The position numbers and the translations under genes were made by a program. Positions 24,113 to 50,503 of a DNA stretch of 64,000 nt are shown here, one piece after another. The DNA lies in the NCBI RefSeq assembly GCF_988243305.1, contig NZ_OZ547136.1, one strand, 5' to 3'. Under the pieces are notes generated by a model. The model saw only the letters and a list, made by a program, of their open reading frames with translations. It made no database searches and had not been told where the DNA came from. Each line of letters begins with the position of its first letter. The stretch's first letter is position 1.

Positions 24113-24145
24113 ATAATTGCAAGATTGTTATATAGGTGAAAATGA

Positions 24146-25021: not shown

Positions 25022-25069
25022 AGTAATACTCCAGTGTATTATAAATCCGCTATTATTGTGAGGTTTAAT

Positions 25070-26536: not shown

Positions 26537-26545
26537 GAATAACGG

Positions 26546-27376: not shown

Positions 27377-27421
27377 GAAATCAAATTACAAGTGATAAAT
27401 ATATTTAATGATGAGGCATTT

Positions 27422-28132: not shown

Positions 28133-28144
28133 AAGGTGATTACA

Positions 28145-29254: not shown

Positions 29255-29315
29255 CTGTAATGCAGGTGACTGTATTAGTTGTTCAGTCACCTGAGTTATT
29301 TTAATGGGGTTTATA

Positions 29316-30239
29316 ATGAATAAAGATAGATCTTTAAATGAAATGATGTTAAGCTTGTTTAATAAATCAACTATTGTTGACTTGTCAAGTGAGACAATAT
29401 CTGAGAGTAAATCTCTTTCAGGCCGTATTTATCAGGATCCTGAACATAACGGGGAATTTGAACTTGATCGTGTATTGACAGATATTTATGCTCCTCAGTT
29501 AATTATTTTTTTACCAGATAAACCAAATGGAACAGGAATATTGATTATTCCCGGGGGGGGCTACCAGGCTGTTATGTTAGATAAGGAAGGTACAGCTCTT
29601 GCTCCAGAGTTTTTATCTCAGGGCTATACATTATTTGTTCTTAGTTACAGATTACCATCGCCAGTTGAGGGAGAAAATATAAACAAAACTTTTATTGATG
29701 CAATATCTGCAATGCTTTATATTCGTAAGAATGCTGATAAATGGCATCTACAGCGTCATCGTATTGGTGTATTAGGATTTTCTGCTGGGGGGCATATCGC
29801 CTCAACGTTTGTGAATCAGATTTGTGATTTCAAACGTTCTTCTGACAGTAAAGAACAAGAGATTTTCGCTATTCCCGATTTTGTCGGGTTAATTTATCCT
29901 GTAATATCAATGAAAGATGATGTGACACATCCAGGCTCCAGGAAGCAATTACTGGGGGACAATAGTACCTCAGAAAATATAATACAATATAGTGCGGATC
30001 TTAATGTCACATCATGTTTTCCTCCTGTGTTTTTACTCCATTGTTGTGATGATGATCTTGTGTCAATTGAAAACAGTCTGCTCATGTACCGTGGCCTAAT
30101 AGAGAAAGGTGTTTCTGCTGAAATGCATCTCTATGAGAAAGGAGGGCATGGTTTTAGTATTCAGTGGGCCACAGATCTTCCTGTTGGAGGATGGATAAAA
30201 CTGTTTATGGACTGGATGTATTCTCATGGATTTAAATAA
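29316..30239 (+). CDS. Alpha/beta-hydrolase esterase, copy 2
   Basis: Paralog of 26546..27376 with the same GFSAGG and HGF motifs. Confidence 0.65.
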   Translation: MNKDRSLNEMMLSLFNKSTIVDLSSETISESKSLSGRIYQDPEHNGEFELDRVLTDIYAPQLIIFLPDKPNGTGILIIPGGGYQAVMLDKEGTALAPEFLSQGYTLFVLSYRLPSPVEGENINKTFIDAISAMLYIRKNADKWHLQRHRIGVLGFSAGGHIASTFVNQICDFKRSSDSKEQEIFAIPDFVGLIYPVISMKDDVTHPGSRKQLLGDNSTSENIIQYSADLNVTSCFPPVFLLHCCDDDLVSIENSLLMYRGLIEKGVSAEMHLYEKGGHGFSIQWATDLPVGGWIKLFMDWMYSHGFK

Positions 30240-30274
30240 TATTTATGGTGACTACCTGGTGAAGCGTCGAGTAA

Positions 30275-31009
30275 CTATGATGCTTCAATTCGTTTATAAA
30301 GGTGATTATACATTAGCTGTTCAGCTTTATCACAATCATGCTCTTTTATGGCCGTAAGTATTTCAATATGCTGCTGATGGGTTTTTTTGTTATTTTCATA
30401 TGTCATTTTATTCTTTTCCAGAGGTTTGGCCATTATCAGCCATTCAGAAAATGCTGAGTGTATTGTTTTTAATACTTTATTGTCAGGTATATCAGCAAGT
30501 ATACTATGAAATTCAATATCATATTGAGCATACACTTCGGGGGTTCTCAGTGAGTTATGATGGATACTGAGCACCTTCTCAAGCCTGTGAATATCCTCAG
30601 GCGTTGCATTTTTTGCTGCATATCTTACAAGGTTGGTTTCAAAAAAGATGCGTAGTCTTTCAAAATCCTTGATGCCATCAGCTGTAGATAAAAAATCTTT
30701 AACAATGCCTGATAACCCATTAATGATGGTTTCTGGTGATGGACGGCAGACACTGGCTTTTTCTCCCTTGTTATACCGGATTAGCCCTTTATGTCTGAGA
30801 GATGATAAAGCCTCTCTGACAGATGGTCTTCCAACGCCAAAGAATGCCATAAGTTCACGTTCAGAAGGCAGGTATTCACCTTCCCTTATCTCCTCCTGGC
30901 GGATCATTCTTTCAAGCTCTTCGGCAACGATTTCTGAAAGTTTTTTTGTAACAATGGGCTTTCTGGTCGTTGTTAGCCCGGGTAACACGGTTTTTTTGTT
31001 GTCGGACAT
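30275..31009 (-). CDS. GntR/FadR-family regulator (NanR-like)
   Basis: …LPSERELMAFFGVGRPSVREAL… and overall colinearity with NanR. Confidence 0.8.
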   Translation of the reverse strand: MSDNKKTVLPGLTTTRKPIVTKKLSEIVAEELERMIRQEEIREGEYLPSERELMAFFGVGRPSVREALSSLRHKGLIRYNKGEKASVCRPSPETIINGLSGIVKDFLSTADGIKDFERLRIFFETNLVRYAAKNATPEDIHRLEKVLSIHHNSLRTPEVYAQYDIEFHSILADIPDNKVLKTIHSAFSEWLIMAKPLEKNKMTYENNKKTHQQHIEILTAIKEHDCDKAEQLMYNHLYKRIEAS

Positions 31010-31105
31010 ATATTGATTTATATGGATTAGAGCAAATGAGTTTTTAATTTAACACTTTCTTTTAATAATGAAAATATTTAATTAAATCTATTATGTAAAG
31101 GGGGA

Positions 31106-32095
31106 ATGATGTATCATCATGATTTTAATGAAAAAATAGGTTTCTGGTATGTGATAGCCCTCGCAGGACAGTCTAATGGTATGGCCTACGGTGAAGGTAT
31201 TCCCCTGCCAGATACACTCGACAAACCCGAGTCCCGTGTAAAACAACTGGCTCGTCGAAAAACAATCACACCAGGAGGAAAAGAGTGTAAATTCAATGAG
31301 ATTATTCCGGCAGATCACTGCCTGCATGATGTTCAGGATATGAGTGGATATCACCATCCGGCTGCTGATTTGCATAAAGGGGAATATGGTTGTGTCGGAC
31401 AGGGATTGCATATAGCTAAAAAGTTACTGCCATACATACCTGAGCAAGCAGGGATATTACTGGTTCCTTGTTGCAGAGGAGGTGCCGCCTTTACTGTTGG
31501 AGCTGAAGGTATGTATGTACCTGATACAGGGGCAACAGCTGATGCAATGCGGTGGGGCACCGGAACAGCACTCTATGAGGACTTAGTAGCCCGGGTTAAG
31601 GTAGCTCTGGAATATAACAGAAAGAATAAACTGCTATCTGTCTGCTGGATGCAGGGGGAGTTTGATCTTATGTCACCAGATTATGAAAAGCATCCTGACT
31701 TGTTTTATCAGATGGTAACTTCTTTCAGGTCTGAGTTATCTGAATACTCATCTCAGTGTGTTGGTAATTCGTCAGAAAGAGTTCCATGGTTGTGTGGTGA
31801 TACAACCTGGTACTGGAAGGAATCTTATCAAAAAGAATATGATTTTATATATGGACATTACAGACAACGGACTGATGATGAAATACATTTTCTCAGCTTT
31901 CAGGATAGTAACCGACATGAATTAACTAATGAGCCAGAAGAAGATGCCGATGATTTATCTGTCGGGTATCTGGGGTCATCATGGAGGACAGAATTAAGCT
32001 GGACAACGTCACAGAGAAGTACACATTTTAATTCAATGGCCAGAAGGGGAGTTATTGCTGAATGTTATGCGCAAAAAATAAGAAATTATTTGTAG
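31106..32095 (+). CDS. nanS: Sialate O-acetylesterase NanS/YjhS-like (SGNH hydrolase)
   Basis: ALAGQSNGMAYGE GDS-type motif; similarity to YjhS as recalled. Confidence 0.8.
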   Translation: MMYHHDFNEKIGFWYVIALAGQSNGMAYGEGIPLPDTLDKPESRVKQLARRKTITPGGKECKFNEIIPADHCLHDVQDMSGYHHPAADLHKGEYGCVGQGLHIAKKLLPYIPEQAGILLVPCCRGGAAFTVGAEGMYVPDTGATADAMRWGTGTALYEDLVARVKVALEYNRKNKLLSVCWMQGEFDLMSPDYEKHPDLFYQMVTSFRSELSEYSSQCVGNSSERVPWLCGDTTWYWKESYQKEYDFIYGHYRQRTDDEIHFLSFQDSNRHELTNEPEEDADDLSVGYLGSSWRTELSWTTSQRSTHFNSMARRGVIAECYAQKIRNYL

Positions 32096-32139: not shown

Positions 32140-34882
<2,743 letters not shown>

Positions 34883-36138: not shown

Positions 36139-37425
36139 TCAGGCTTTATTAGGTAAAGTATTTACCGAATGTGAAATCTTCACTGTCAGTGTAACAACTG
36201 CTGAACACAATAGCGTGGCTATCATAAAGATGAATGCACTGTTGTAACTTCCGTCGCTGCTTTGGATCAACCAGCCAATGACAGGGGCAGAAATAACCCC
36301 AGCCATCTGACCGCCAAAGTTAACGATACCTGATGCTCGCCCCATGATATTACTGGGAATAGTATCCATCAAAATGCCCCAGAACATTGCCATAGCGAAG
36401 AACATAAACAACGCTGAAACACATTGATAAACAACAGCCATATCCGCACTACTTACGCTGAAAGTCAAGTACAGGAACCCTGCAGCAATTACGGAAGTCA
36501 AGACATATAGTGTTTTACGTTGTGGTTTTAATTTATCTGAGCAATAGCCACCTAATAATGTCCCCCCAGCTCCAAATAGAAAGGGGATCGCAGCCATTAC
36601 GCCAGTTTTGGCCAATGAGAATTCACGAACAGTAATTAGATAACTTGGCAACCAAGTTGAAAAGCCCCAGAACGTAATATCAAACAAAAACCAAATGCAG
36701 GCCATCTGCCAAAGTACAGGCATCTTAAGTACATCTTTAAATGCAATATTACTTTTGCCTTGCCCCCCGTCCTGGTTATCTGATGCTAGCTCAACCAGAT
36801 CCTGCTGCGTTATTGCTGGATGATCTTTTGGATTATCACGGGTAAATAACCAGATACCCGCAGCAATAAATAAACCTGGTATACCCAATACGATGAAGAC
36901 CATGTGCCAGCCAAATGCACCGATAATGCTCGCCGCTACAACAACCGCCAGTGCTGGCCCTAAGGTGTTCACCGTAGACTGAATGGCTGTTGCGCGTCCT
37001 CGCTCTTTCGATGGAAAATAGGTCGAAATCATCTTCCATGAAGCTGACGGGAAACAACCTTCCCCTATACCAAAGAAGAAACGAACAATCAGCATTAACG
37101 GCAGAGCAAGTACCGCACCAGTAAGGCTGGTAAATATGGACCACCATGCAATACCAATGGCCATAATTTTCCTTGAGCCAAACTTATCGGCTAACATTCC
37201 ACCGGGAATCTGAAATGCAGCATAACCAATAAAAAAAGCACTAATAATTAAACCTTGTTGTGTTGTATCAAGATTTAAATCTTTGCCAATATAAGGTAAT
37301 GAAACACTCATGACCATTCTGTCGAGAAAAGAGAGTAACCATGCTAACCAAATTAAGGTCAAGACGGTATATCTTGCTTTCCAAAGTTTTGGTTTACCTA
37401 AAGGTAAAGATGTTTGTAGATTCAT
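36139..37425 (-). CDS. MFS transporter (428 aa)
   Basis: 12-TM-type hydrophobic profile; last gene of the sigma-54 operon. Confidence 0.85.
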   Translation of the reverse strand: MNLQTSLPLGKPKLWKARYTVLTLIWLAWLLSFLDRMVMSVSLPYIGKDLNLDTTQQGLIISAFFIGYAAFQIPGGMLADKFGSRKIMAIGIAWWSIFTSLTGAVLALPLMLIVRFFFGIGEGCFPSASWKMISTYFPSKERGRATAIQSTVNTLGPALAVVVAASIIGAFGWHMVFIVLGIPGLFIAAGIWLFTRDNPKDHPAITQQDLVELASDNQDGGQGKSNIAFKDVLKMPVLWQMACIWFLFDITFWGFSTWLPSYLITVREFSLAKTGVMAAIPFLFGAGGTLLGGYCSDKLKPQRKTLYVLTSVIAAGFLYLTFSVSSADMAVVYQCVSALFMFFAMAMFWGILMDTIPSNIMGRASGIVNFGGQMAGVISAPVIGWLIQSSDGSYNSAFIFMIATLLCSAVVTLTVKISHSVNTLPNKA

Positions 37426-37502
37426 TGTAATGTCCTTTGAGTGTAACTATCTATCGCGACTCTTTTGGTCGCGATAGATCAATAAGTATTTAACGTAATT
37501 TA

Positions 37503-39098
37503 TTAATATTCTTTTCTGATAACTTTACCGCTACAGGCATAACTTTCCGTACCATTAATTAAGGCGATACGTCCATTGACCATTACAAGTTCAATTCCTT
37601 CTGGATACTGATTTGGCTCTACAAATGTTCCCTTATCTGCAATGGTTTTGGGATCGAACATTACAATATCAGCCGCATACCCAACTTTAAGTAATCCCCT
37701 GTTTTGCAGACCTAATACTTCCGCAGGTTTGCCGGTCATTTTACGAATTGCATCCTCCCAACTTAGGCATCCCTCTTCACGCACATATTTGCCCAGTACA
37801 CGAGGAAAGGCTCCAAACACTCGAGGATGGGGTTTTCCTGCCCCCATTAAACCATCAGTACAGACGTTCTGCTCTGCACGACAGAGGAATTTAATAACGT
37901 GTTCTTCTGTCCCATAGAAATCAACCATTCCTACAGCGTTTTCTTCTTCAAGAAGCAAATCGAAAGTGGCGTTATAGGGATCTTTACCGCGTAATTCGCC
38001 TAACTGGACAAGATTCAAACCTACGGCATCCTGATTTTTGGCAGTTTTCACACTGGTGACAAAAATTTGGTCTAGACCAGCAAAGTCAATAAAGTTATCC
38101 CATCCTGGAATACCTTGCTGAATGTCGTCGATCATTTTTGCACGCAGTTCTGGCGAAGCTAGTCGTTTCAGCAATTTATCCGTTCCTCCGGAATGGACCC
38201 ACGGAGGTAGGATTACACCAAGCATAGTGCTACCTGCAACATACGGATATTGATCGTAAGAGATACGTATTCCCTCTTTCTGCGCCTGTTCCAACATGCC
38301 AAGCATTTGGTCAATAAGCCCCCAGTTTTTCTTCCCACATACTTTCATATGTGATATATGGAGCCACACACCACTAGCTTTGGCTATATCGATTAATTCT
38401 TGGGTTGAATTGATAATATCATCAGCTTCACTGCGCTGATGCACCACAAAGAGCCCATCATATTTCGCTGTGACTTTACATAATTCAATCAACTCAGCAG
38501 TATCGCCAAAGGCGCAGGGCATATAGATAAGCCCAGAGGAAAGACCAAATGCCCCAGCTTTTAACTCCCGCTCAAGGATTTCACACATCTTTGCGACGTC
38601 TTCACGGGTAGAAGGGCGACCATCAAGTCCCATCGCTTCCATACGTACATTACCATGCGGAACCAGATACGCTAGATTTGTTGCTGGATGGTGAGATTCC
38701 AATAGGTTTAGGTATCCATCGGTATTTTTATATTTCCAGTCTATTTTATCGGTATCACCGTCAAGTCCAGCAATATTTTTACGCCAAGCTGGAATATATT
38801 TCTCAGGTAGTGGAGCCAATGCGACACCATCCTGTCCAAGTAACTCAGTAGTAATACCTTGACGTATTTTTGCCGATAGTTCAGGATTTATAATGGCCGA
38901 TAAATCAGAATGTGTGTGTGTATCAATAAAACCAGGGCAAATAATTTTTCCGCTTGCATCAATAAATTGTTCATTCTTACCAACATCAACGTGGCCGATG
39001 GAAATAATATATCCATCATCAACTACCACGTCAGTAATTATGCCCGGACTTCCTGTTCCATCAATAACATTTCCATTTTTAAAAATTGTTTTCATCAT
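37503..39098 (-). CDS. Amidohydrolase, N-acyl-D-amino-acid deacylase (D-aminoacylase) family
   Basis: GFIDTHTH metal-binding motif and family-like N-terminus; start taken at MMKTIF with GGAG RBS. Confidence 0.8.
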   Translation of the reverse strand: MMKTIFKNGNVIDGTGSPGIITDVVVDDGYIISIGHVDVGKNEQFIDASGKIICPGFIDTHTHSDLSAIINPELSAKIRQGITTELLGQDGVALAPLPEKYIPAWRKNIAGLDGDTDKIDWKYKNTDGYLNLLESHHPATNLAYLVPHGNVRMEAMGLDGRPSTREDVAKMCEILERELKAGAFGLSSGLIYMPCAFGDTAELIELCKVTAKYDGLFVVHQRSEADDIINSTQELIDIAKASGVWLHISHMKVCGKKNWGLIDQMLGMLEQAQKEGIRISYDQYPYVAGSTMLGVILPPWVHSGGTDKLLKRLASPELRAKMIDDIQQGIPGWDNFIDFAGLDQIFVTSVKTAKNQDAVGLNLVQLGELRGKDPYNATFDLLLEEENAVGMVDFYGTEEHVIKFLCRAEQNVCTDGLMGAGKPHPRVFGAFPRVLGKYVREEGCLSWEDAIRKMTGKPAEVLGLQNRGLLKVGYAADIVMFDPKTIADKGTFVEPNQYPEGIELVMVNGRIALINGTESYACSGKVIRKEY

Positions 39099-39161
39099 AA
39101 TTCTCCATGACGATGTCACATGGTGACACCGCCTGTAAGGGAAGAGGTTTTATCTTTAAAT

Positions 39162-40346
39162 TTAACGGAGATATAGTGTCTGAATAATGCTGTAATAACC
39201 ACTGGCCGAACCGGTTAATTGCTCGATCTCAATGTACTCATCAATGGTGTGCGCCAAGTTTTCCCGTGAAGGTCCAAACCCAATAGTTTTGATCCCCGCT
39301 TCACCAGCATAGTGGCTTCCGTTTGTACAAAATGAGTACTGCGTGATGGTCGGTGAAAACCCTGCCTTACGAATACCAACCAACGCAGCTTGTACAAATT
39401 CATCAGATTCGTCAAACACCCACCCAGGGAAGAAACGCTCACCTTCAATAGTTGCTCCTGTGTAGCAGGACTCTTGGCCTACTGCGTACGAGACCCGCCC
39501 TTTAAACTGCGGATCGAGGATTGCGAACTCTGCCAGTACACGTTCCAGAGGTGCAATAACGTTTTCTTTCGTTTCTCCGACAAGCAAACGGCGATCGTAA
39601 GTTGCACGGCAGTAATCCGGCACTACTGATGCTCCCGGATATGGCGATGATTTAATGTCTGTTAACTCTAAAATTCCGGGGCCAAGTATCGGATGCATTG
39701 GTGGTACAATGGTACGAATTTTGTCAATTAATTGTGCCATTTTGTAGACAGCATTTATTCCTGCCTGTGGATTGGCTGAGTGAGCTGGTTTCCCAAATGT
39801 TTCGACAACAATTTCAGCGCGTCCACGCTGACCGATTTTCAGGTTTAATTCGGAAGCTTCACCGATAATTACGTAATCAGGTTTAAAACGTTCACTGACC
39901 AAGCGTGCCGCAACACCTTCAAAACACTCTTCATGGACAATACAGGCTACGTAAATTTTGCCGGAAAAATTACGCTGGTAATCCTGACCAAAAAAACCAA
40001 CGGCGGAGATCATAGCCGCAACAGCTCCCTTCATGTCGGTTGCCCCCCGACCATAAATTTTGCCTTCGTCAATATCACCGCCATATGGATTCCGAGTCCA
40101 CATATCTTCGTTTACAGGCACAGTATCAATATGCCCATCCAAAACGAGAGTTTTCCCTGGCTGATTGCCAATAATACCACCAATAATATTGCCATACTTA
40201 TCGATATGAATATCGTCAAACTGGTAATACTGCATCATATCTTTTATGGCATTCACTACATCCCCTTCCTGACCGGAATAGCTTTTTTGTTGGATCAATG
40301 TCTGACAATTTTTAATAACTTCTTTATAACGACTTGCAGATAACAT
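39162..40346 (-). CDS. M20-family metallopeptidase/deacylase (YgeY/ArgE/DapE-like)
   Basis: LDGHIDTVP and GRGATDMKG motifs. Confidence 0.8.
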   Translation of the reverse strand: MLSASRYKEVIKNCQTLIQQKSYSGQEGDVVNAIKDMMQYYQFDDIHIDKYGNIIGGIIGNQPGKTLVLDGHIDTVPVNEDMWTRNPYGGDIDEGKIYGRGATDMKGAVAAMISAVGFFGQDYQRNFSGKIYVACIVHEECFEGVAARLVSERFKPDYVIIGEASELNLKIGQRGRAEIVVETFGKPAHSANPQAGINAVYKMAQLIDKIRTIVPPMHPILGPGILELTDIKSSPYPGASVVPDYCRATYDRRLLVGETKENVIAPLERVLAEFAILDPQFKGRVSYAVGQESCYTGATIEGERFFPGWVFDESDEFVQAALVGIRKAGFSPTITQYSFCTNGSHYAGEAGIKTIGFGPSRENLAHTIDEYIEIEQLTGSASGYYSIIQTLYLR

Positions 40347-40378
40347 GGTGTTCCTCCGTTATTATTTAAATTAGAAAA

Positions 40379-41593
40379 TTACTGCTGAAGTACCGGATAC
40401 TGAGTCCCCCAGACAATATTGCGATATGATTCTGGGTCAGTGTCACCTTCAGTGCTGATTAGCAAAACACGGGAATGTGAATCCAGCCCCAACTGTTCAC
40501 GGGTTTGCCTAAATGTAGGGGAGGTCATCAGTAACGCCAGAAGCCCTGTGGTTACTGCCCCTGACTCTCCAGAAATAATCTGCGGATCTCCTGCTAACGG
40601 ATTTCCCAAAATACGCATACCCAACATTGCAACCTCGTCAGGACAGGAGGCAAAGGCTGTAGCATAGTCACGTAGCAGCTTCCAGCCGATACTGTTAGCC
40701 TCGCCACAAGCCAGTCCTGCCATGAGTGTCTGCAAATCCCCCCCTACTGCCACGGCATTTCCATCTTTCGCCAAGGCTGAGCGGTAGAGGCAATCGGCAA
40801 TTAATGCTTCTACAACGATTACTTTTGGACGATTATCCCCCCAAGCAGCAGTCACCATTCCCTGGACCATACCCGCAAACGAACCAACCCCCGCTTGGAC
40901 AAAGATATGTGTTGGTGCTACCTGATGGAGTTGAGCCATAGCCTCCAGCATCAACGTGCTATAGCCCTGCATGATCCATAGAGGAATTTTTTCATACCCT
41001 TCCCAAGCGGTGTCCTGAACAACAATCCAGCCGGATTTATCTGCCTGCTCTGCGGTCATTCGAACAGCATCGTCATAGTTCATATTGACAATTTCAGCCG
41101 TAGCACCTTCATTGCGAATTGATGACAGGCGTTGTTGCGAAGACCCCTTTGGCATATAAACTACTGCATTTTGCTTTAGCTGACGCGCCATCCACGCTAC
41201 TCCCCGCCCGTGGTTACCGTCAGTAGTAGTAGCAAAGGTAACTGTTTTCAGATAATGGCGCACATCGTCACTAGTCATGATATCAAACGACAATTCATCA
41301 ATCTCTTTCCCTAGTAATTCTGCGATATGACATGCCATGGCATAGGCGCCACCCAGCACTTTGAAGGCTTTTAGGCCAAAACGCTGAGACTCATCTTTGA
41401 GATAGATCTTTTTTATCCCTAATTTTTGTGAAAGCGCAGGTAATGTATAGAGCGGCGTTGGCTCGTAGCCTGGTATTGTCCGATGAAAATTCAATGCTTT
41501 TACCAGCTCATTGTGACTAAATGAAGCTAGTGGTGCGCTAGGTTGCTGAGTAAATTGTGTCTGGTTAATAAAAAAGGATATTTTTTCCTGCAT
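40379..41593 (-). CDS. PLP-dependent diaminopropionate ammonia-lyase-like enzyme (DpaL/YgeX family)
   Basis: Family-level resemblance to YgeX-type ammonia-lyases; first gene of the operon. Confidence 0.75.
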   Translation of the reverse strand: MQEKISFFINQTQFTQQPSAPLASFSHNELVKALNFHRTIPGYEPTPLYTLPALSQKLGIKKIYLKDESQRFGLKAFKVLGGAYAMACHIAELLGKEIDELSFDIMTSDDVRHYLKTVTFATTTDGNHGRGVAWMARQLKQNAVVYMPKGSSQQRLSSIRNEGATAEIVNMNYDDAVRMTAEQADKSGWIVVQDTAWEGYEKIPLWIMQGYSTLMLEAMAQLHQVAPTHIFVQAGVGSFAGMVQGMVTAAWGDNRPKVIVVEALIADCLYRSALAKDGNAVAVGGDLQTLMAGLACGEANSIGWKLLRDYATAFASCPDEVAMLGMRILGNPLAGDPQIISGESGAVTTGLLALLMTSPTFRQTREQLGLDSHSRVLLISTEGDTDPESYRNIVWGTQYPVLQQ

Positions 41594-41675
41594 GATAAGA
41601 CCTCATTGTACTGGTATCTCGCACCCTGTAATCAGAGAAATCCAAAGATGCCTTCTGTATGACTATTCACTAAAA

Positions 41676-41691
41676 AGCAAAATGCGTACCA
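41676..41691 (-). promoter_or_regulatory. Candidate sigma-54 (-24/-12) promoter for the dpaL-like operon
   Basis: Minus strand reads TGGTAC-GCATT-TTGCT (GG-N10-GC spacing) about 85 bp upstream of the dpaL-like start; sigma-54 activator encoded divergently. Confidence 0.5.
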
Positions 41692-41973
41692 GTTTTTTAT
41701 TAGAGTTAGTAAAAAGTAACATATATTTCTTTAACCTTTTCATTTCAATGAATTAGGAAGTCATTGCGTCATAATGAATCCCCCTCCCTAGTATTGGCCT
41801 TATTTCAATGCCTGATAAATTCTCATTAATGAGAATTTATGTGATCAATCAAAAGAAAATAATAAAAACACAAATAAAACATATAGATATATTGATCTTT
41901 TTCAAGTAAATTTTTCCTAATATCATATAATTTCTCATTTTTCTGAGAATTTTATACTGACTGGAGGAGAACC

Positions 41974-43719
41974 ATGATTTCAGTACTGAGAAACATTCAG
42001 GATGATATATGTAATTATGCCGATGCTATCTCTGGCATAATCGGAACTGATGTAGAAATCATTGATGAGTCATTAATGCGCATAGCTGGTACAGGTCAAT
42101 ACAGGTATATGCTCAATGAGAGTGTGGTAAAAAATGGTTACATTTATCGGCATGTATTACAGGTACGAAAAACAGTTCTGATCACAAATCCAGGAGAACA
42201 TCCTCTCTGCCAGTTATGTGAGAAAAACCATTATTGCTCGGAAATGTTAGATTTGAACACACCCATTTTTCTCAATGAGCGTGTCATCGGAGTCATTGGA
42301 ATTATTTGCTCTACCCAGACACAGCGTAAAATCTTGTTGAACCAGATTGATAAATTTATTACCTTTATTGAGCAAATTGCTGCGATGATTTCCAGTAAAG
42401 TCTTCGAATGTCTGGAACGCCTGCGGGCCCAAGAAACTCTCAGTACATTTCGTCGATTGATTGATGCGATGGATCGCGGTGTTGTAGCTATTGATGGTAA
42501 GGGCCGAATCTGGCACGCTAACAACTCAGCCGATCGCATACTTAACCGCAAGGTTCAAGGTATTACGTTAACGATTGAAACAACCGGGGACATTCTATAT
42601 GGAGATGAAGAAGCATGGTTGACGCTGGAAGGAGAAAGATACCATGTGTTGTGCAAACAAATTTCTCTTTCCTCATTAGATAATGATCGACTCACCATGA
42701 TTATCTTTCGTGATGCACATGACTATCTGAGCACAATAGTTTATCCTTACGAATCTGATGCTCAAGTGCGATTAATTGGACATTCACCACTAATGGAACA
42801 ACTCAGAAGCACCGTTAGAAAAATCGCCAGTAGTTGTGCCAGCGTACTGATCACCGGAGAAAGTGGCTCAGGTAAAGAAGTTGTGGCATTTGCTATTCAT
42901 CAGAATAGTCCACGTAAATCCGCTCCTTTTGTAACAATCAACTGCGCTGCAATCCCAGAGCAACTGCTGGAAAGCGAGCTATTTGGCTACGTGAAGGGGG
43001 CATTTAGTGGGGCGAATCCTAAAGGACGTATAGGTAAATTTGAACTGGCCAATGGGGGAAGTCTCTTTCTCGATGAGATCGGAGATATGCCGCTCCATCT
43101 GCAGGCCAAGCTGCTTAGAGTTCTTCAGGAAAAAAACATTACCCGCGTTGGCTCTAATAATATTATCAATATTGATGTGCGCATTATTGCTGCGACCAAC
43201 AAAAACATCCGTGAAATGGTTGAGAGTAATCAGTTTCGAGAAGACCTTTATTATCGCCTGAATGTGGTTCCTCTAGTAATTCCTTCTTTACGGGAACGAC
43301 GGACTGATATTGCCCTCCTTGCACAATATTTTGCTGATGAGTTCTCTGAAAGCTATCAACGTCCAGTGAAAAAACTCCCCGATGATATAATTAACCATCT
43401 TTACGCTTGGCACTGGCCTGGTAACATCCGTGAATTACGTAATGTCATTGAGTATATTTTTGTTATGCGTGGTGAAACTACTGATATCAACGTCAGCCAT
43501 CTTCCCCCTTATCTGCTCAATGTAGTGGACAACAGCAAAACTGTTATGACAATCAACACCAAGCAGCTACTGAGTCAGGGAAGACAAGCGGAAAGGAGGG
43601 CAATTGAAACTGCATTACAACGATATAGCCCAAGTGGAGAGGGGAAAAAACAAGCTGCCGCTGAATTAGGAATAAGTATTGCTACACTATACCGAAAGAT
43701 AAAACAATATGGTTTATAG
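41974..43719 (+). CDS. Sigma-54-dependent transcriptional activator (YgeV-like)
   Basis: AAA+ Walker [15 protein letters not shown] and ESELFGY sigma-54 interaction motifs, C-terminal HTH; GGAGGAG RBS. Confidence 0.85.
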
Positions 43720-43948
43720 GCGAATTTTCTTTATCACACAATATTTAGATAAGCAAATTGAGTAATTATTCTGTAAAGCATTCAGCGAATGCCTGTTATG
43801 TCACAAAAATTATTTACAGATCACATAAGTCATTTTCAAATGGCTTTGACTCTGGAAAAATAAGGTGTGCACTACTGTACGGGGTGAGCAACACTGGTGA
43901 TGGCGGGGTATTGTTTCATGAAATGCTAAATAACTGCTCCTAATGCCG

Positions 43949-44835
43949 CTACACTTTAGCCAGCCCATGTTTTCCACCGGGAAATGGGCTGACGGTATCC
44001 ATAAAGTGACGAACCTTTTTCAACAACTGCCACATTGAACGGCACTGGTGATTTCGGGTTACTGTCTCATGAAGCGCCTGCCATAACCGTTCGATATGAT
44101 TGACCCACGGCGAGTAAACCGGCTGATAAATTATCCTGAACTTCGAGTTTGCTTTCAGCCAGCGCAACGTTTCACGGCTTTTGTGGATGATGTAGTTATC
44201 GACAATGAGTGTAATCGTTTTTGCCCGCCGGTATGTCGCTTTCAGGTGTTTTAACAGACTGATAAATAAGGACGAACCTTTACTGTTCCCACCAACGTAG
44301 CTGACTTTTCCCGTACCGCTGTGCAGCGCACCGGCAAGATAGTACTTTTCATTCTGACCCGGCGTGACAACGCGCTTTTGCTGCCCACGTAGCTGCCAGC
44401 CTGCACCAATTTTGGGATTGAGGTGAATATCCACTTCATCTTCGTAAAACACGGGGTTTTCCGCACAGCATTTCGCCAGTGCTTCATGAATAGCGACCAT
44501 TTTTTCTTCTTTGTGTGGGTCACGGATACGCAGTGTCGGCGCAGTTCTCCGCCATACCAGTCCGGCAGCAGGCAACCAGCGGCATATACACTCGGCAGGT
44601 AATGATTTGTCCATTAACACCCGACTGCGTGAACCAGTTAATCCAGGGTCCAACATAGGAACGGACTCAGCAGAGCATTCTAGCAACATCGCTGACACGG
44701 TGGAGCCATTGCAGTATCACCATAGCAGTCAGTCTGCGGGCATAATTTTTATCGTGTGTTTTGTGGATAGCTTTCTGTATCAGGTGTCGTTCGTTACAGG
44801 GAATTGGCTCTATGATTGGCATAGTTCAGTCCGGT
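43949..44835 (-). pseudogene. IS630-family transposase, decayed (frameshift and internal deletion)
   Basis: N-terminal MPIIEPIPCNERHLIQKAIHKTHDKNYARRL… in one frame, DDE part (…TITLIVDNYIIHKS…) in another, about 150 bp missing. Confidence 0.75.
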
Positions 44836-47179
44836 TGGTGATTTGTTTTAATTTGTCGATTGAACAAACGCACAATCCGGGCTGAGTTCCCTCAAAGTGA
44901 TCTACTATTCCGTGCAGCTATTTAGATCAAGGCTAAGGCAGGAATTTTATGTAATTAATGCTAGAGGTAAACGTTGTGGGTAAATGGTTTGCATGGTTAA
45001 TATTTAACCATAAGGAATAAGAGGTATTGCAGAATTAATTCCGTATAGTTATTCTTCTTGTAAGAAGATTTTTGGGTGCTAGTGATAAATTACAGAGCCT
45101 ATAGAAATGTAAAGTAACAAATCACAGAATAAGGATACAATAGCATAATTTATTGTCACACAAAGCCCCAAGACATTCTGTAATAAAAGGAATTTCCATA
45201 AGAAGAACCATTGACAATAATATGAGCACCACCATTGTAGAGATATTTATTTATGACTGAAAAGGAACTCCAAAATTTGGCTATTTCTATATATGAAAGG
45301 CAACGAGAGAAGTTATCACGTGAGACAGAGTGTAATAAATCTACCTCAATAAGATTTGCCCTAGAAGATTTCCTAAAGAATGCTCCGAAACGTATGCGAT
45401 CTGCGCGTGCTCGCCCCCCAGGGTAATAAATGTCGCAAACTCTGATAATATTTTTATGAAAACAAGCATATTTACAAACGTAAACTAATGATTCTAATTT
45501 GACAGAATATAAACTATAAGTATTAATAAATACCATACGGAGCAGAAAAAAATATCAAAATGAGTTAATTTGATTAGAAAGATTTATCCCATTTATAAAG
45601 ATAATTGTAGAAAGATTCATTGACTCTAAGAGCAAATAAGGAGAGGGCATACAGGATATAACTAGTACTCATAATAAAAATCCCTCTACCGATATAAGTA
45701 AAATTTATTTCCCAGACGAGTTTTTAATAATACATATCAGAAACAGTGCTAAACGATGGGCCGTAATCCTCATGAATAGTAACTCATGGTTATTTTACAC
45801 TGGATTATCGGTGGGGTAATTCTGATAATAGAAACACCTGAAAAACTAAAATCATTAATTTTAAAATACAACCATATACTCATCAAACTCTCGATACACC
45901 ATTCTTCTTTTAAAGTAAAGAAAAACTCTATCTGTGCTTATGTTCCACAACATAAATAGAATAAAAAAATTAAGGATTTATATATTAAGAGTGAATTTAC
46001 ATTTTAGGCTAACTTTAGTACATATTAATTATTGTTTCTTATTAATTTTAAACTTCAAAAGCTATATCAAGGGTTGCCACTTCTATCTGCGACTAACAGC
46101 ATATCTATCAGCAACAATTGATTAATTCCAGCACCTCATGTCGGCGCGATCTGGTGGAAAAGCCATTCCACCAAAACAACCCCAAGCGCTGGCACGTTGG
46201 GGAGATCTGCACTGTGAACCAGCTGGCAATGAGCCGCTTTATTATCGAGTTCGGTGACCGCCTAGACGGTCACTTCTGAGAAAAGGCATTTACACAGAAT
46301 CCTAAACCGGCTCGCAGGTTTCCCCCACTCCCCATCCGCACTCAAGTTCAGACGGCGAATAACATAGCTAATCAGCTCATTACGGAATGACTACCATCCA
46401 GATAGTGTGCCGCAGTTTAAGGTTCGGTCAACCGCTTTTTAACCATTCAGCATTGCCTACAATACAAATAAGGAGCCTTATATTATGCCTAATCTCTGTA
46501 TGCTGCATAGTGCCGGGTGCCTCCCGGTGAGTCCAGCCTGGTGTCTCTGAACCCGCATAGAAAGGATTAGGGTAATATAAAAACAAACACCTGTTACTGA
46601 TATGCTCCGCCGCTTAGGGGAGTTCACCATACATTTTTATTTTTAACAAAAAAGCTCAAGGCGACAATAATAAATACTATAAAATGTGAGCAGCATAACA
46701 TTTTAACTTAGTAACTAATATTCACTAAACTTACCAATTCACATACGCCCCACGGCATGGCAAAGCTTCGTTACGTTAGTTTATACCACATAGGTATTAT
46801 TACCAAACTAAATAATCACTTTACGCTCTGTATTTTGCCTGTTTTCACTGCGGTTTTTCTCAATACCCCGTCCAGAATAACGTTAACACATTATTAACTT
46901 AAATCCGGAGAACATGATGATGACTGGATTCAAACACACTTAACATGAATATCCTCTATCCATTAAAATAACTGTCATTGAGCCGGTTGAAAAAACGAGA
47001 TGAACTATAAACAGATCTAGCAGTGGCATGGCTGGCGAATGGCGTTATCAATCCACTGCCTTTACTGAGTGCTGAATATCCCTTCACTGACCTGGAAGAG
47101 GTGCTACGTTTCGCCGGTGATAAAACCCAGGCATCAAAAGTCCAGCTTGTTTTCTTAGAGATAAATAAAGGAATAATAC

Positions 47180-47863
47180 AATGAACAAGCAATTTTCACT
47201 GGCAGAAAAAATATCTTGATTACCGGATCAGCACAGGGCATTGGCTTTTTACTGGCAACCGGTCTGGGTAAATATGGCGCACAAATAATTATTAATAATA
47301 TTACTGCCGAACGCGCATAACTTGCTGTAGAAAAACTCCACCAGGTGGGTATTCAGGCCGTTGCCGCACCTTTTAATGTTACTCATAAACATGAAATTGA
47401 TGCCGCCGTTGAACATATCGAAAAGGACATCGGCCCCATTGATGTGCTGGTGAATAACGCCGGTATCCAGCGCCGTCATCCTTTTACTGAGTTCCCTGAA
47501 CAAGAGTGGAATGATGTGATCGCAGTAAACCAGACCGCCGTGTTCCTGGTGTCGCAAGCGGTAACCCGTCACATGGTTGAACGCAAGGCAGGTAAAGTTA
47601 TTAATATTTGCTCGATGCAAAGCGAACTGGGACGTGGCACCATCACCCCTTATGCCGCATCGAAAGGGGCGGTAAAAATGCTCACCCGCGGCATGTGCGT
47701 CGAGCTGGCGTGCCACAATATTCAGGTCAACGGTATTGCGCCGGGCTATTTCAAAACAGAAATGACTAAAGCACTGGTTGAGGACGAAGCCTTCACCGCC
47801 TGGTTGTGCAAGAACAAATTTCCATTGCGGGTTTTTATGGGCTGGAGATTGGCAGGCAAATGA
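47180..47863 (+). pseudogene. idnO: Gluconate 5-dehydrogenase idnO pseudogene (frameshift, in-frame stop, 3' truncation)
   Basis: MNKQFSLAEK… then frameshift; …ITGSAQGIGFLLATGLGKYGAQII… and a 172-aa ORF match IdnO; C-terminus diverges. Confidence 0.8.
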
Positions 47864-47865
47864 TC

Positions 47866-48003
47866 CCAAGCCTCGCCAGCGTAATTACTCCCCGTTTTGA
47901 TATTGGTCGGATGGCCGCCCAAATGTTGCTGAGCAAAATTAAGAATAACGATCACAACACTGTTGACCTCGGGTATCAGATTTATCACTGTAACACGCTT
48001 TAG
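47866..48003 (+). pseudogene. LacI-family regulator 3' fragment (possibly idnR)
   Basis: …SLASVITPRFDIGRMAAQMLL… is a LacI-type C-terminal signature; follows idnO as in the idnDOTR operon. Confidence 0.45.
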
Positions 48004-48745
48004 GTTATTTTCTCTTCATTACACGTATTCTCTTTGCCGGACGTTGCCTATACTCCAAGCAGGAAACTGGAGGAAATCTCATGAGCGCCTCCCTGTTAAT
48101 TGCCCGCATGCCAATACGGTGGGGTGGGATATCTTTGGCGAGAAAGGCCATCCGGTGCGGGCAACGGTTTCAGACCTAGGGCCACTGTTGCTGGCGTGGC
48201 TGTTGAATCTCAACGATGTGCAGTCTGGCGTGCTGGATATCATTTTCCGCATTGCTGATGATCAGGGATTGTTGCTGCTCGACTTTAAAGATCTGCGGGC
48301 AATTACCCAGTACATCGGCGATAACGCCAAATCCTTCCAGAATCAGTACGGTAATATCAGTAGCGCATCGGTTGGTGCCATCCCGCGCGGATTACTGTCG
48401 CTGGAGCAACAAGGCGCAGAGCATTTCTTTGGCGAGCCGATGCTGGATATCAAAGACTGGATGCGCACCGATACCAACGGTAAAGGCGTTATTAATATCC
48501 TCAGCGCCGAGAAGCTTTATCAGATGCCGAAACTGTATGCAGCCAGTCTGCTGTGGATGCTCTCGGAGCTGTATGAACAATTGCCGGAAGCGGGCGATCT
48601 GGAGAAACCAAAACTGGTGTTTTTCTTCGACGAAGCGCATCTGCTGTTTAACGATGCAGCACTGGTACTGCTGGATAAGATTGAGCAGGTGATAAGGCTT
48701 ATTCGCTCAAAAGGCGTTGTCGTCAGAACGGCTTCCCCTGTGTGA
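47990..48745 (+). pseudogene. yjgR: yjgR internal fragment (DUF853 ATPase)
   Basis: …[26 protein letters not shown]…[18 protein letters not shown]… matches the middle of YjgR; both ends missing. Confidence 0.7.
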
Positions 48746-49321: not shown

Positions 49322-50503
49322 TCAGGTCTGCTCAGAAAGTGAATCAATGTAGTCAGCGTACCATTGCATCATTTCACGGCGACCATCGAGATACTGTGCG
49401 TGGTTATAGGTACCGCGCATGATGTTTTTATCAACATGGGCAAGCTGGAGTTCAATCCAGGCAGAGCTGAAATCATGGTCATGGAGAATGGTACTGAAAG
49501 TATGCCGAAAACCATGAGCTGTAGTGAATGTATGCCAGCCAACTTGTTGAAGAAACTCATTGATGCAACCACGGCTACGAGGTTGATTACCCCTGTATAC
49601 ACCAGGAATAACCAGATCTGAGTTACGGGGATTTGTGATTATTTTTATATCTTTCAATAACATTTGAGCCTGATGAGAAAGAGGAACAACATGCGGCCTC
49701 CGCATTTTCATTCTCTCTTTTGGGATTACCCAGAGGGCATTGGTAAAATCAATTTCATCCCAAGTAGCCAGGCGTAATTCTCCCGTTCGAACAGCAGTCA
49801 GAACCAGTATCCGCGTTACCAGAGACATAAAATTTCCTGAAACTTTCATTTGGTACATGAAAGCTCCTAACTGTTCTTCAGATAGCATCCGTCTCTGCTG
49901 TTTTTCAGGATGCAGAACAACACTGCTGAGAGTCGATGCTGGGTTAATAGTGGCGCGCCCCGTCGCAATGGCATAATCAAATATTTGAGAACAGAGCTGA
50001 CGAGTCTTACGTAACGCTTCAAGTTTGCCATTCCTTTCAATAACCCTCAGTGCATTCAATATTTCCAAGGGGCGAATATCAGCCACAGGACGCTTCCCTA
50101 GCGTGGGATTAATATGATTCTCGAATCTTGCACGCTGGTCCGCTAAATAACCCGCAGTCCAACGACAAGCCATATGTGTGAACAACTCTTCTGCAAGAGT
50201 ACAAAATGTGCATGCAATACTTTCTCTTAGTGCATGTTTACTCGCCTGTTTTTCATATGAAGGATCTTTTCCTTCAGCCAGGAGTTTACGTGCGTCATCC
50301 CGTTTCTGACGCGCCAGAGCCAGTGATATGCCTGGATAGACACCAATCACCAATTTCTTTTCTTTACCCGCAAATCGATACTTCAGATTCCAGTAACGAG
50401 CGCCAGATTTCTTGATAAGAAGGTAAAGTCCTTGACCATCAGAAAGTTTGTAATCCTTGTCAGCGGGTTTGGCCGACTCAATTTGTCGAACAGTAAGTGG
50501 CAT
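49322..50503 (-). CDS. int: Tyrosine integrase, P4-type
   Basis: 393 aa; N-terminal …KLSDGQGLYLLIKKSGARYWNLKYRFAGKEK… and C-terminal HGFRHTF…LAHVD…Y catalytic signature; 177 bp from the right junction. Confidence 0.9.
   Translation of the reverse strand: MPLTVRQIESAKPADKDYKLSDGQGLYLLIKKSGARYWNLKYRFAGKEKKLVIGVYPGISLALARQKRDDARKLLAEGKDPSYEKQASKHALRESIACTFCTLAEELFTHMACRWTAGYLADQRARFENHINPTLGKRPVADIRPLEILNALRVIERNGKLEALRKTRQLCSQIFDYAIATGRATINPASTLSSVVLHPEKQQRRMLSEEQLGAFMYQMKVSGNFMSLVTRILVLTAVRTGELRLATWDEIDFTNALWVIPKERMKMRRPHVVPLSHQAQMLLKDIKIITNPRNSDLVIPGVYRGNQPRSRGCINEFLQQVGWHTFTTAHGFRHTFSTILHDHDFSSAWIELQLAHVDKNIMRGTYNHAQYLDGRREMMQWYADYIDSLSEQT

Follow-up and report, generated by a model that had tools for sequence, protein, structure and literature searches.

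An AT-rich interval at an Escherichia coli island edge as a probable junction scar of successive mobile elements

Background

In P4-like and PICI satellites, the immunity ("Bro") zone is arranged as int, alpA, eta/ash with the CI/C4 RNA, and primase, and for the P4 eta-type leader translation matters more than a conserved protein sequence (PMC10111431). Prophage sRNAs of the STnc100 family represent another described system. These sRNAs are related to PasD (bioRxiv 10.64898/2026.05.13.724894) and have relatives in Stx phages, downstream of stx2 (PMC12370729). Phage copies of the family reside in the late region, often in pairs, and in lambdoid phages related sequence is located between the Q/nin region and the lysis genes. 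A further point of reference is IS-mediated gene decay, as described in IS-rich E. coli and Shigella. Finally, foreign DNA of approximately 30% GC in E. coli is usually bound and silenced by the enterobacterial protein H-NS.

The stretch of DNA analyzed here, hereafter the window, is 64 kb long. Within it, positions 44900-47150 had been described in a sequence-only reading as very AT-rich, ORF-poor island DNA containing no convincing gene, for which decayed genes, an H-NS-silenced region, or a non-coding element were offered as candidates. Our analysis indicates that the interval is in all probability no single feature; it would represent a junction scar at the border of a composite island, in a rare lineage of E. 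coli, where successive mobile elements inserted, were each cut by the next, and decayed. The locus resembles known IS-mediated decay in that four IS families (IS630, IS256/IS1414, IS4, and IS3) occur within 3.2 kb and one IS fragment abuts a truncated core gene, idnD. The one unusual point is the stability of the arrangement, which recurs in many isolates and metagenomes from a single lineage. Taken together, the pieces probably serve no common function; the interval is mostly ordinary, although not empty.

Composition and coverage of the interval

The GC content of positions 44900-47150 is 36.7%, compared with a mean of 48.4% across the window, and the AT-rich core at 44930-46130 falls to 30.8%, which makes it the AT-richest 1.2 kb anywhere in the 64 kb. 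The initial impression of AT-richness is therefore borne out. To the right of the core, GC rises to 48.3% at 46131-46662 and drops to 33.9% at 46663-47019; the more GC-balanced piece that had been noted at 46140-46560 exists and consists of an IS1414 end, an IS4-like scrap, and the GC-rich portion of an STnc100 gene. Runs of five or more A/T bases are more common in the core (6.7 per kb) than across the window (3.7 per kb), but the longest spans 7 bases, so that "homopolymer-like" holds only as mild wording.

The description as ORF-poor is also accurate: each of the six frames contains between 43 and 61 stops, five of them have no open stretch of more than 68 codons, and the interval holds no long annotated-type gene. 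The exception is a 132-codon frame on the minus strand at 45159-45554, discussed below. The absence of any convincing gene holds for long genes, but not for a coding-type ORF of 57 codons or for a full-length STnc100 match. Similarly, the interval lies within the island except for its right-hand 130 bp (47020-47150), which are the 3' end of the core gene idnD. A consensus scan detected 11 promoter-like sites against 8.6 +/- 3.0 expected, which is no enrichment, and no terminator-like sites.

With a core of 31% GC in a 48% GC context, unmatched in other E. coli genomes, the interval resembles xenogeneic DNA silenced by H-NS, and from its GC content it is plausible that the core is bound and silenced in this manner. 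It differs from such DNA in that the AT-rich part amounts to just about 1.2 kb plus 0.35 kb.

Nucleotide searches covered complete E. coli genomes (n=5426; near and distant modes), 72,556 plasmids, and 50,697 phage records. They matched the IS ends, the sRNA gene, and idnD, whereas the AT-rich core matched nothing. Nucleotide homology of the core is limited to two loci, L005 and L026 (59% identity), which share positions 45020-45770 with the window; at the protein level, the core matches O157 OI-43/48 and satellites.

The left edge and the AT-rich core

The left boundary is formed by a defective insertion sequence at 43924-44927 on the minus strand, of which only the last 28 bp fall within 44900-47150. 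Its transposase is assigned to the IS630 family (NCBIfam NF033545, E = 2e-49) and is split into ORFs of 249 and 51 aa. Plasmid pCFSAN004181P carries an intact copy of 1160 bp (L025 489-1648), which aligns with window positions 43926-44581 and 44598-44927, with both ends included, and reference bases 1145-1316 are absent from the window, which corresponds to an internal deletion of 172 bp. Through this internal loss and the split ORF, the element is no longer an intact IS630-family sequence. Matches to E. coli genomes stop at 44927. An 8-bp repeat, ATTTAGAT, was considered as the target duplication of this element and rejected, since the alignment to the intact copy places the left end at about 43924 and not at 43750.

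The AT-rich leader that follows, at 44928-45252, lies upstream of the small ORF and yielded no nucleotide match in any of the genome, plasmid, or phage collections searched. Its homology to the corresponding part of L005 begins at 45020: a gapped alignment pairs window 45020-45766 with L005 398-1179 at 59% identity over 801 columns (E = 8e-27). For 44928-45019, the same genome, plasmid, and phage searches found no homology.

The leader is followed by the small ORF (45253-45426) and by a decayed paralogue of it at 45560-45770 on the plus strand, whose window copy carries stops and indels in the DNA alignment. The equivalent in L005 is an intact ORF of 93 aa, ORF2, ending in ...RRFALDDFLSTHIKKRSKRWGRN; tblastx matches window 45715-45759 (DEFLIIHIRNSAKRW) to L005 1127-1171 (DDFLSTHIKKRSKRW), and blastn aligns 45560-45766 with L026 55-260 at 59% identity.

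The remaining spacer, at 45771-46223, has about 28% GC up to about 46130, and its last 94 bp (46130-46223) are GC-balanced. It is unmatched in E. coli genomes, plasmids, and phages, Rfam returned nothing near a gathering score, and its ORFs have no Pfam match. A weak match of 45 bp to L005/L026, in collinear position (E = 0.04-0.07), is the sole further signal. Across the whole core, Rfam at permissive thresholds produced chance-level matches of 12-18 bits, with neither C4 nor any other RNA family found.

A conserved small ORF

The ORF at 45253-45426 (plus strand) is intact over 57 codons, encoding MTEKELQNLAISIYERQREKLSRETECNKSTSIRFALEDFLKNAPKRMRSARARPPG followed by tandem stops, and is assigned by homology to an uncharacterized family of E. 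coli small proteins. Its product matches the family over 57 of 57 residues, with 63% identity to the homologue in L005 and 47% to that in L006 (OI-43/48 of O157 EDL933), and these homologues have the start and the ...RPPG stop in common with it. A tblastn search of the protein against 7.3 Gb of plasmid records reached E = 6e-7, and a profile search recovered 18 cluster representatives of the family, in which the C-terminal motif "...FALEDFL.KYPRRLKSGK.RPPG" is strongly conserved. No Pfam or NCBIfam model matches the family. Four of 17 members match phrog_21027, a group of unknown function; for the window protein this match is weak (E = 0.013), and for other members it reaches 1e-13.

The substitutions within the family follow a protein-coding pattern, with differences in the plus frame of 0.458, 0.383, and 0.599 at codon positions 1, 2, and 3. 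In a gap-free block, the plus frame exceeds the antisense frame both in BLOSUM score (3.24 versus 2.12) and in synonymous share (0.40 versus 0.31), and identity also favors it. These substitution statistics favor a gene on the plus strand over the antisense ORF of 126 aa.

Sister contigs, which include human gut metagenomes, are 99.2-99.9% identical to the window. Twenty-four contigs carrying the antisense ORF were read, and in all eight examined in detail the same arrangement is fixed. Eight sister contigs cover the small ORF, and in seven of them it is intact, as in the window; across the ORF, six of these seven are identical to the window, and for L017 the comparison covers the sequence outside a gap that hid later differences. 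The remaining contig has two non-synonymous changes and a frameshift, which falls in a C-run and in an assembly built from short reads. No ancestral, uninterrupted version of the locus was found among the eight contigs shown, and L005/L026 share 45020-45770 only.

Satellite context of the small-protein family

The family occurs in all six of the other loci examined, each time in a P4-like/PICI satellite, between alpA and the ash/primase operon. Synteny is the same in the six: int, alpA, [AntA/Rha/Bro], the small ORF on the opposite strand, the ash position, and a DUF927 or D5_N primase. In three of them ash itself follows, and in the other three an unassigned ORF takes its place. Unlike these satellite loci, P4 and all other phage records searched by tblastn contain no copy of the small protein.

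The window resembles the P4-like/PICI immunity zone in having the same small-protein family and an open antisense frame reminiscent of an eta-like leader ORF, 132 codons long here. It differs in having no adjacent int, alpA, ash, C4 RNA, or primase. The nearest alpA homologue is 29 kb away (15799-16059), the integrase is found past core genes (49322-50503), and tblastx against four satellite/island loci matched the small ORF alone in the 44-47 kb region. The closest relative of the module (L005/L026) likewise belongs to no satellite and is flanked by an autotransporter gene and lutABC.

We tentatively suggest that the small ORF could represent an overlooked family, antisense within the translated eta/Ash-like leader of enterobacterial P4-like/PICI satellites, that might regulate the satellite switch at the C4/CI immunity circuit as a protein, a counter-transcript, or both; the window copy would then be an orphan outliving its satellite. 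On this reading, annotation pipelines would often miss the ORF or call the opposite strand. A small-protein family with no Pfam or NCBIfam model and a fixed place opposite the satellite immunity region is a cheap candidate for studies of the satellite switch.

A possible but doubtful alternative to simple survival is an AT-rich core that still works as a module: the 57-aa protein would regulate, for instance, satellite or phage functions and be retained for its use to the host or the island, and the AT-rich DNA around it would form a regulatory region under H-NS control. This explanation overlaps with that of a junction scar and claims function over mere survival. The intact ORF in the window and in most sister contigs is consistent with it, as are purifying selection across the family in the plus frame, the conserved start, stop, and satellite position, and the fact that the L005 lineage also keeps the module outside satellites, beside an autotransporter gene. 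Arguing against it, the usual partners int, alpA, ash, primase, and C4 RNA are all absent nearby, the paralogue is decayed, promoter-like sites are not enriched, and the window copy has no clear Shine-Dalgarno sequence. The damaged copy in one sister contig also counts against it and would fit relaxed constraint on the ORF, while the sister strains are too alike to reveal selection within the lineage. The small ORF may still be expressed.

The open frame on the opposite strand

Antisense to the small ORF, and sharing its wobble position, is the open frame of 132 codons at 45159-45554 (minus strand), which gene callers report as a 126-aa protein at 45156-45536. That this is the real gene, with the 57-codon plus-strand ORF as its shadow, appears unlikely, despite several observations that favor it. 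Gene calls for the ORF exist in 50 or more contigs, and its equivalent in EDL933 is annotated by RefSeq as WP_001303898.1. The frame is longer than expected from composition (P = 0.003; 2000 dinucleotide-preserving shuffles), is open in eight of nine homologous loci, and extends over 347-619 codons in satellites.

However, in L005 the minus frame is interrupted by three stops, whereas the plus ORF is intact there at 63% identity. Read in the minus frame, position 2 varies more than position 1 (0.458 versus 0.383), which is atypical for coding sequence, and Arg/Leu codon swaps are synonymous solely in the plus frame, in line with the BLOSUM scores and synonymous share. The product has a shadow-like composition, and its sole Pfam match is LRR_5 at E = 0.028; given this value and the break in L005, its identification as a leucine-rich-repeat protein was rejected. 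The long open minus frame in satellites is explained by the need to translate a P4 eta-type leader (PMC10111431). We conclude that the antisense frame is in all likelihood no gene here but the shadow or relic of a leader ORF resembling eta/Ash, and that the 126-aa "hypothetical protein" is a likely mis-annotation.

Insertion sequence remnants and truncated idnD

To the right of the core, positions 46224-46310 (plus strand) are an 87-bp terminal remnant of IS1414 (IS256 family), comprising the last 19 transposase codons (...AMSRFIIEFGDRLDGHF, then the stop) and the right inverted repeat. Window 46224-46322 has 95-98% identity to the 3' end of E. coli IS1414 copies and aligns to L013 2001-2099, a locus in which the IS terminates near position 2087. 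Of the complete element of about 1.3 kb with its transposase, only the last 87-99 bp are present.

The adjoining IS4-family-like fragment (insZ-like; 46314-46404) is a 91-bp match, with 77-79% identity to DNA that about 2000 E. coli genomes label as "IS4 family transposase" and 80-82% to plasmid p147 (L004). For the following segment, 46405-46463, searches of E. coli genomes, plasmids, and phages found no match.

At the far right, an IS3-family left end of ISSen1 type (46867-47032, plus strand) consists of the inverted repeat and a degenerate start of orfA, cut at the idnD junction. Over 166 bp it has 81-83% identity to the ISSen1-type left end and first codons found on many plasmids, and these 166 bp are all that exists here of a complete IS3 element with orfA/orfB. 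The 3' end of idnD (L-idonate 5-dehydrogenase) occupies 47020-47184 on the plus strand, where its reading frame ends. It retains the last 55 or so codons, the remainder being deleted, with 97.7% identity to E. coli K-12 and thousands of genomes from window 47020/47021. Beside it, idnO is a pseudogene and idnT is missing.

A hybrid STnc100-family sRNA gene

Between these IS fragments, an STnc100-family (PasD-related) prophage sRNA gene is located at 46464-46662 on the minus strand. It matches Rfam RF02076 over model positions 1-206 of 206, with a score of 103.2 bits against a gathering score of 47 (E = 2e-22). The gene is unannotated here, and our analysis supplies the correction. It resembles described members in matching the whole covariance model, but differs from phage copies as an orphan among IS scraps: its flanks are IS1414, IS4-like, and IS3 fragments, with no phage genes.

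Sister loci L014-L021 contain two STnc100 copies about 880 bp apart; in L014 they are located at 7788-8007 and 8887-9073 and score 102 and 110 bits. Alignments of the window to these two copies overlap at 46498-46556, and about 1037 bp are missing from the window. The window gene combines into one hybrid two diverged copies that sister strains carry separately, and its single copy, compared with two in the sisters, implies a deletion of about 1 kb. A three-way alignment resolves it as a B-A-B-A mosaic of the sister copies; a single clean crossover between them was accordingly rejected.

In the last hairpin, 1 nt stands in for the 18-nt inner part, as it does in sister copy A, and the hairpin falls far short of the consensus length of the family. 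In sister copy B the 3' hairpin is complete and GC-rich and carries a U-run, a strong terminator, where the window copy is much shortened. The predicted fold is not unusually stable (z = -1.38). The hybrid may still be expressed. With two copies, a copy with an IS1 insertion, and a recombined hybrid, the sister strains form a natural STnc100/PasD series that illustrates the diversification of prophage sRNAs after phage loss.

Upstream of the sRNA gene, positions 46663-46866 are AT-rich DNA (34% GC) that is identical in sister strains and unmatched in E. coli genomes (at blastn sensitivity), plasmids, and phages.

Assembly of the probable junction scar

With the homologies and boundaries computed above, about 64% of the interval can be traced either to truncated idnD or to pieces of five or more mobile elements, which agrees with the earlier suggestion of decayed genes. 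A known pseudogene series covering the whole stretch was found only in part; about 36% matched nothing, or 808 bp in four blocks (44928-45019, 45771-46223, 46405-46463, and 46663-46866), in which a further element could hide. A single non-coding element is unsupported, since the pieces form a mosaic and are unrelated to one another.

The order of events is inferred; from left to right, the pieces read as follows. A crippled IS630-family element, ending at 44927, borders a core (44928 to about 46130) that is probably the remnant of a small regulatory-type module, with one 57-codon gene intact and its paralogue degenerate. Elsewhere in E. coli this module lies in P4-like/PICI satellites, between alpA and the ash/primase operon, or in a pathogenicity island downstream of an autotransporter gene. 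The 87-bp IS1414 tail and then the IS4-like scrap follow, and next to them is probably a piece of late-region DNA from a lambdoid prophage. In sister strains it carries two STnc100-type genes, which here would have recombined into one hybrid with the loss of about 1 kb. Last would come the IS3-family left end, whose rearrangement may have removed most of idnD.

The default of the initial reading, a purely non-coding spacer with no gene or RNA of any sort, is very improbable: few ORFs, extreme AT content, and the lack of enrichment in promoter-like or terminator-like sites agree with it, but the full-length, high-scoring STnc100 match, the conserved small ORF with its coding signature, and the recognizable IS and idnD fragments contradict it.

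An AlphaFold2 model of the small protein (pLDDT 79) has helices at residues 3-29 and 36-43, a basic tail, and no beta strand; a PDB search found no sequence match, and Foldseek returned one match only, at E = 5.7. The identification of the small ORF as a ribbon-helix-helix antitoxin or repressor from a decayed toxin-antitoxin pair, initially suggested by a possible strand-helix-helix pattern and a short ORF directly downstream, was rejected as extremely improbable, given the 27-residue N-terminal helix of this all-helical model, the absence of a PDB match by sequence or fold, the lack of any RHH or antitoxin family match for the window protein in Pfam, NCBIfam, or PHROGs, and the absence of a toxin-like partner from all homologous loci.

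An apparently empty AT-rich block can thus be read as the remains, layer upon layer, of five or more mobile elements, which matters little for the window itself. For annotation, the analysis corrects a likely error on two counts, the 126-aa antisense protein and the missing sRNA gene.

Composition and structure of the interval

The sequence-only reading had described positions 44900-47150 as very AT-rich, and base composition bears this out, with a GC content of 36.7% over the interval against a window mean of 48.4%. By segment, GC amounts to 30.8% at 44930-46130, 48.3% at 46131-46662 and 33.9% at 46663-47019; the first of these is the AT-richest 1.2-kb stretch, and none comparable exists elsewhere in the 64 kb. 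A/T runs of at least five bases occur at about twice the window-wide frequency, the longest reaching 7 bases. All six frames hold 43-61 stops, and in five of them the longest open stretch does not exceed 68 codons; the sixth, on the - strand (45159-45554), remains open for 132 codons, which is longer than composition predicts (P = 0.003; 2000 dinucleotide-preserving shuffles).

No collective mechanism underlies the interval, which is a mosaic whose pieces can be identified and delimited. At its left lies an IS630-family element (~43924-44927), both ends of which align to an intact 1160-bp copy; it lacks 172 bp internally, and this deletion splits the transposase. Next comes the AT-rich core (44928 to ~46130), to which nucleotide searches of E. 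coli genomes, plasmids and phages yield no match. Within it, 45020-45766 aligns at 59% identity to L005, a 2.2-kb contig of Escherichia sp. MOD1-EC7003, and carries an intact + strand ORF of 57 aa (ORF1, 45253-45426) as well as the degenerate counterpart (~45560-45770) of a second ORF, ORF2. Further right are the last 87 bp of IS1414 (46224-46310), comprising the transposase C-terminus and right inverted repeat, a piece resembling IS4-family, insZ-like DNA (46314-46404; 77-79% identity), an STnc100 sRNA gene on the - strand (46464-46662), the left end of an ISSen1-like IS3 element (46867-47032) and, from 47020, the last ~55 codons of idnD, 97.7% identical to K-12. Four blocks totaling 808 bp (44928-45019, 45771-46223, 46405-46463 and 46663-46866) lack any match. 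The recognizable pieces all belong to known kinds, with four IS families represented beside an Rfam sRNA family and the remnant of a core gene.

The arrangement most likely reflects mobile DNA that inserted repeatedly beside the idn operon, itself dead, and was truncated and recombined; the IS3-family end abutting idnD probably marks the event by which the remainder of that gene was lost. In E. coli, DNA of ~31% GC is a preferred substrate of H-NS; given its own GC content of ~31%, the AT-rich core is probably H-NS-silenced.

A family of small proteins and its probable coding strand

The intact small ORF, the only plausible one in the core, belongs to an uncharacterized family whose members are inconsistently annotated and already stand in databases as hypothetical proteins. 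When 100,044 species representatives were scanned with its peptide pattern, a single locus emerged, L005, which carries ORF1 (57 aa) and a longer ORF2 (93 aa), both with the C-terminal motif RFAL(E/D)DFL. In a word-indexed search of 5.8 billion proteins, the sole match was a near-identical copy from the window's own locus. The exact 57-aa sequence is missing from that collection and a 126-aa antisense ORF (- strand) is called in at least 50 contigs, and therefore gene callers favor the antisense strand. A tblastn search against plasmid-labelled records identified a full-length 62-codon homolog with 47% identity in O157:H7 EDL933, in a region that we take to be O-island 43/48 from the neighboring iha and alpA. 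At this locus (L006 5925-6197; NZ_CP124741.1 166858-167130), RefSeq annotates the 90-aa WP_001303898.1 opposite the unannotated 62-codon family member, probably a wrong-strand call.

A profile built from the three versions of the small protein, searched with HMMER against 1.84 billion representatives, retrieved 18 clusters (31-92 aa), including several truncated or frameshifted copies. Many members begin with MT.EELQ, and most full-length ones end in FALE.F(L/V).KYPRRLK(S/A)GK.RPPG. All named members are labeled “hypothetical protein” and originate in E. coli or Shigella. The family is covered by neither a Pfam nor an NCBIfam model; 4 of 17 members match phrog_21027 (function unknown). The small protein has no PDB match by sequence or fold and none in phage records. 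An AlphaFold2 model built on a 17-sequence alignment (pLDDT 79) shows two helices, one long (3-29) and one short (36-43), followed by a basic, disordered tail, and thus does not fit a ribbon-helix-helix identity. In the sister contig L001 (Logan ERR9716715), the small ORF carries two non-synonymous changes and a 1-bp deletion.

The antisense frame, which shares its wobble position with the + ORF, is open in eight of nine homologous loci. Differences by codon position are 0.458/0.383/0.599, with position 2 the most conserved in the + frame and not in the - frame. Across the gap-free C-terminal block, where the alignment is independent of either frame, the + frame exceeds the - frame in BLOSUM score (3.24 vs 2.12), identity (0.57 vs 0.52) and the synonymous share of changed codons (0.40 vs 0.31). 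Arginine codons alternate between CGN and AGR in the + ORF, and L005 has three stops in the - frame and an intact + ORF. The + ORF thus shows the better coding signal, and these sequence comparisons make it quite probable that the + strand ORFs constitute a real gene family; if so, the window's 132-codon - frame would be a shadow or relic.

Satellite context of the family

All six loci examined for other family members (L007, L010, L011 and L022-L024) are P4-like/PICI satellites with a common gene order: a tRNA or other attachment site, an integrase, alpA and sometimes AntA/Rha/Bro on one strand, followed in all six by the small ORF on the opposite strand. Beyond it lies ash in three loci and an ORF without family match in the rest, then a primase of the DUF927 or D5_N type and ssb, frequently joined by DUF4222 and in some cases by capsid genes.

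In these satellites the antisense frame is stop-free for 347-619 codons, against 7-31 stops in each of the other five frames. These open frames, all on the - strand, span 5334-7190 in L007, 5067-6638 in L010, 4295-5335 in L011, 4785-6263 in L022, 5088-6632 in L023 and 5364-6479 in L024. The long frame terminates in an Ash/Icd-like C-terminus; in at least two loci a C4 antisense RNA gene is embedded in it, close to the end and within the part called as ash, and more C4 copies lie directly downstream. In P4 eta/kil, a long ORF containing the CI immunity RNA is translated from an upstream promoter, whereby transcription passes the immunity terminator (Mageeney et al., PMC10111431). The long satellite frame with its internal C4 RNA matches this translated-leader arrangement. 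The satellite frames are larger than P4 eta, which we take to be 197 codons. A leader ORF of this type must stay open and does not require conservation of its protein sequence.

Since the small ORF keeps a fixed position opposite the immunity region, the protein may have a regulatory role, and we raise only tentatively, as a rather doubtful possibility, that the family acts as a functional regulator encoded antisense within the eta-like leader of these satellites. The window module is accordingly an orphan: no satellite partner genes occur near its small ORF, and its closest relative (L005 and the related locus L026) belongs to a pathogenicity island, where an autotransporter gene, lutABC and the gene of a StcE-like protease flank it. 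In this relative (L005 1-330 and L026/L027) the module directly follows the 3' end and terminator of the autotransporter gene, which ends in ...NANFRYSF, presumably an ending typical of SPATE-type autotransporters. On its other side come 1.4 kb of DNA lacking genes, then lutABC and the genes of a lactate permease and a StcE/TagA-like metalloprotease.

A hybrid STnc100 sRNA gene

The gene at 46464-46662 matches the Rfam model over its full length and scores 103 bits (gathering score 47). STnc100, a prophage sRNA, was discovered in Salmonella and is related to PasD of EPEC (bioRxiv 10.64898/2026.05.13.724894); it is common near Stx-phage late genes, and some STEC carry it 75 nt downstream of stx2 (PMC12370729). 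The lambdoid phage PhiR5_2 carries two related copies between the nin/Q region and the lysis genes.

Sister strains possess two diverged copies ~880 bp apart, as in L014 (copy A, 8887-9073, 110 bits; copy B, 7788-8007, 102 bits, with an intact, GC-rich, strong terminator hairpin), and also in L015, L016, L018, L019 and L021. The window aligns to copy A on the left and copy B on the right, with an overlap at 46498-46556 and 1037 bp missing, and a three-way alignment resolves its gene into a B-A-B-A mosaic. It follows that the window copy arose by recombination, with loss of the spacer. It retains the short 3' hairpin of copy A; no consensus promoter or terminator was detected at the hybrid gene, and its fold is not unusually stable. 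In L001, an IS1 end lies in the 5' part of copy A (10900-10999).

Neighborhood and lineage

The window derives from a rare E. coli lineage. A foreign catabolic cluster of five genes (36139-43719), encoding an MFS transporter, an amidohydrolase, a YgeY-like M20 hydrolase, the diaminopropionate ammonia-lyase DpaL and a divergent sigma-54 activator, was not found in any of 5426 complete RefSeq E. coli genomes and is fixed in the window lineage, gut metagenome contigs included. Database records of the flanking sigma-54 regulator and the ammonia-lyase come from E. coli only.

To the left of this cluster are a group II intron with a 507-aa reverse transcriptase/maturase ORF (32703-34226, - strand; TIGR04416, E = 1e-100), IS66, a sialic-acid-type cluster (23195-32095) and CP4-like island genes with an alpA homolog. 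The sialic-acid-type cluster encodes a DHDPS-family lyase, a ROK kinase, an MFS transporter, a KdgM-family porin, a NanM epimerase, two esterases, a GntR/FCD regulator and a SASA esterase. The AlpA homolog (15799-16059, - strand) is ~70% identical to the alpA product of the EDL933 island region, and alpA lies 29 kb from the small ORF in the window versus ~640 bp there. CP4-like genes nearby (12-19 kb) encode YagK/YfjJ, dynamin-like GTPases, YjcZ, DUF932 and DUF4942.

Downstream of the interval, the dead idn operon is followed by a yjgR fragment and by a P4-type tyrosine integrase of 393 aa (49322-50503, - strand; 41-60% identity by segment to satellite integrases). In the idn region (47192-48003), idnO is disrupted by a frameshift near 47215 and a premature TAA near 47318 and has lost part of its 3' end; there is no idnT, a C-terminal piece resembling idnR occupies ~47806-48003, and the yjgR fragment spans 47963-48745. 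The names idnO, idnR and yjgR are putative ones, taken from the translations and from Pfam families of neighboring genes. The integrase, beyond the yjgR fragment, adjoins ula genes in sister contigs. The whole window contains no tRNA gene, which, together with the integrase's position beside ula, suggests large rearrangements between islands. The window arrangement recurs at 99.2-99.9% identity in all eight sister contigs examined, human gut metagenomes among them, these eight having been drawn from 24 that were read and carry the antisense ORF.
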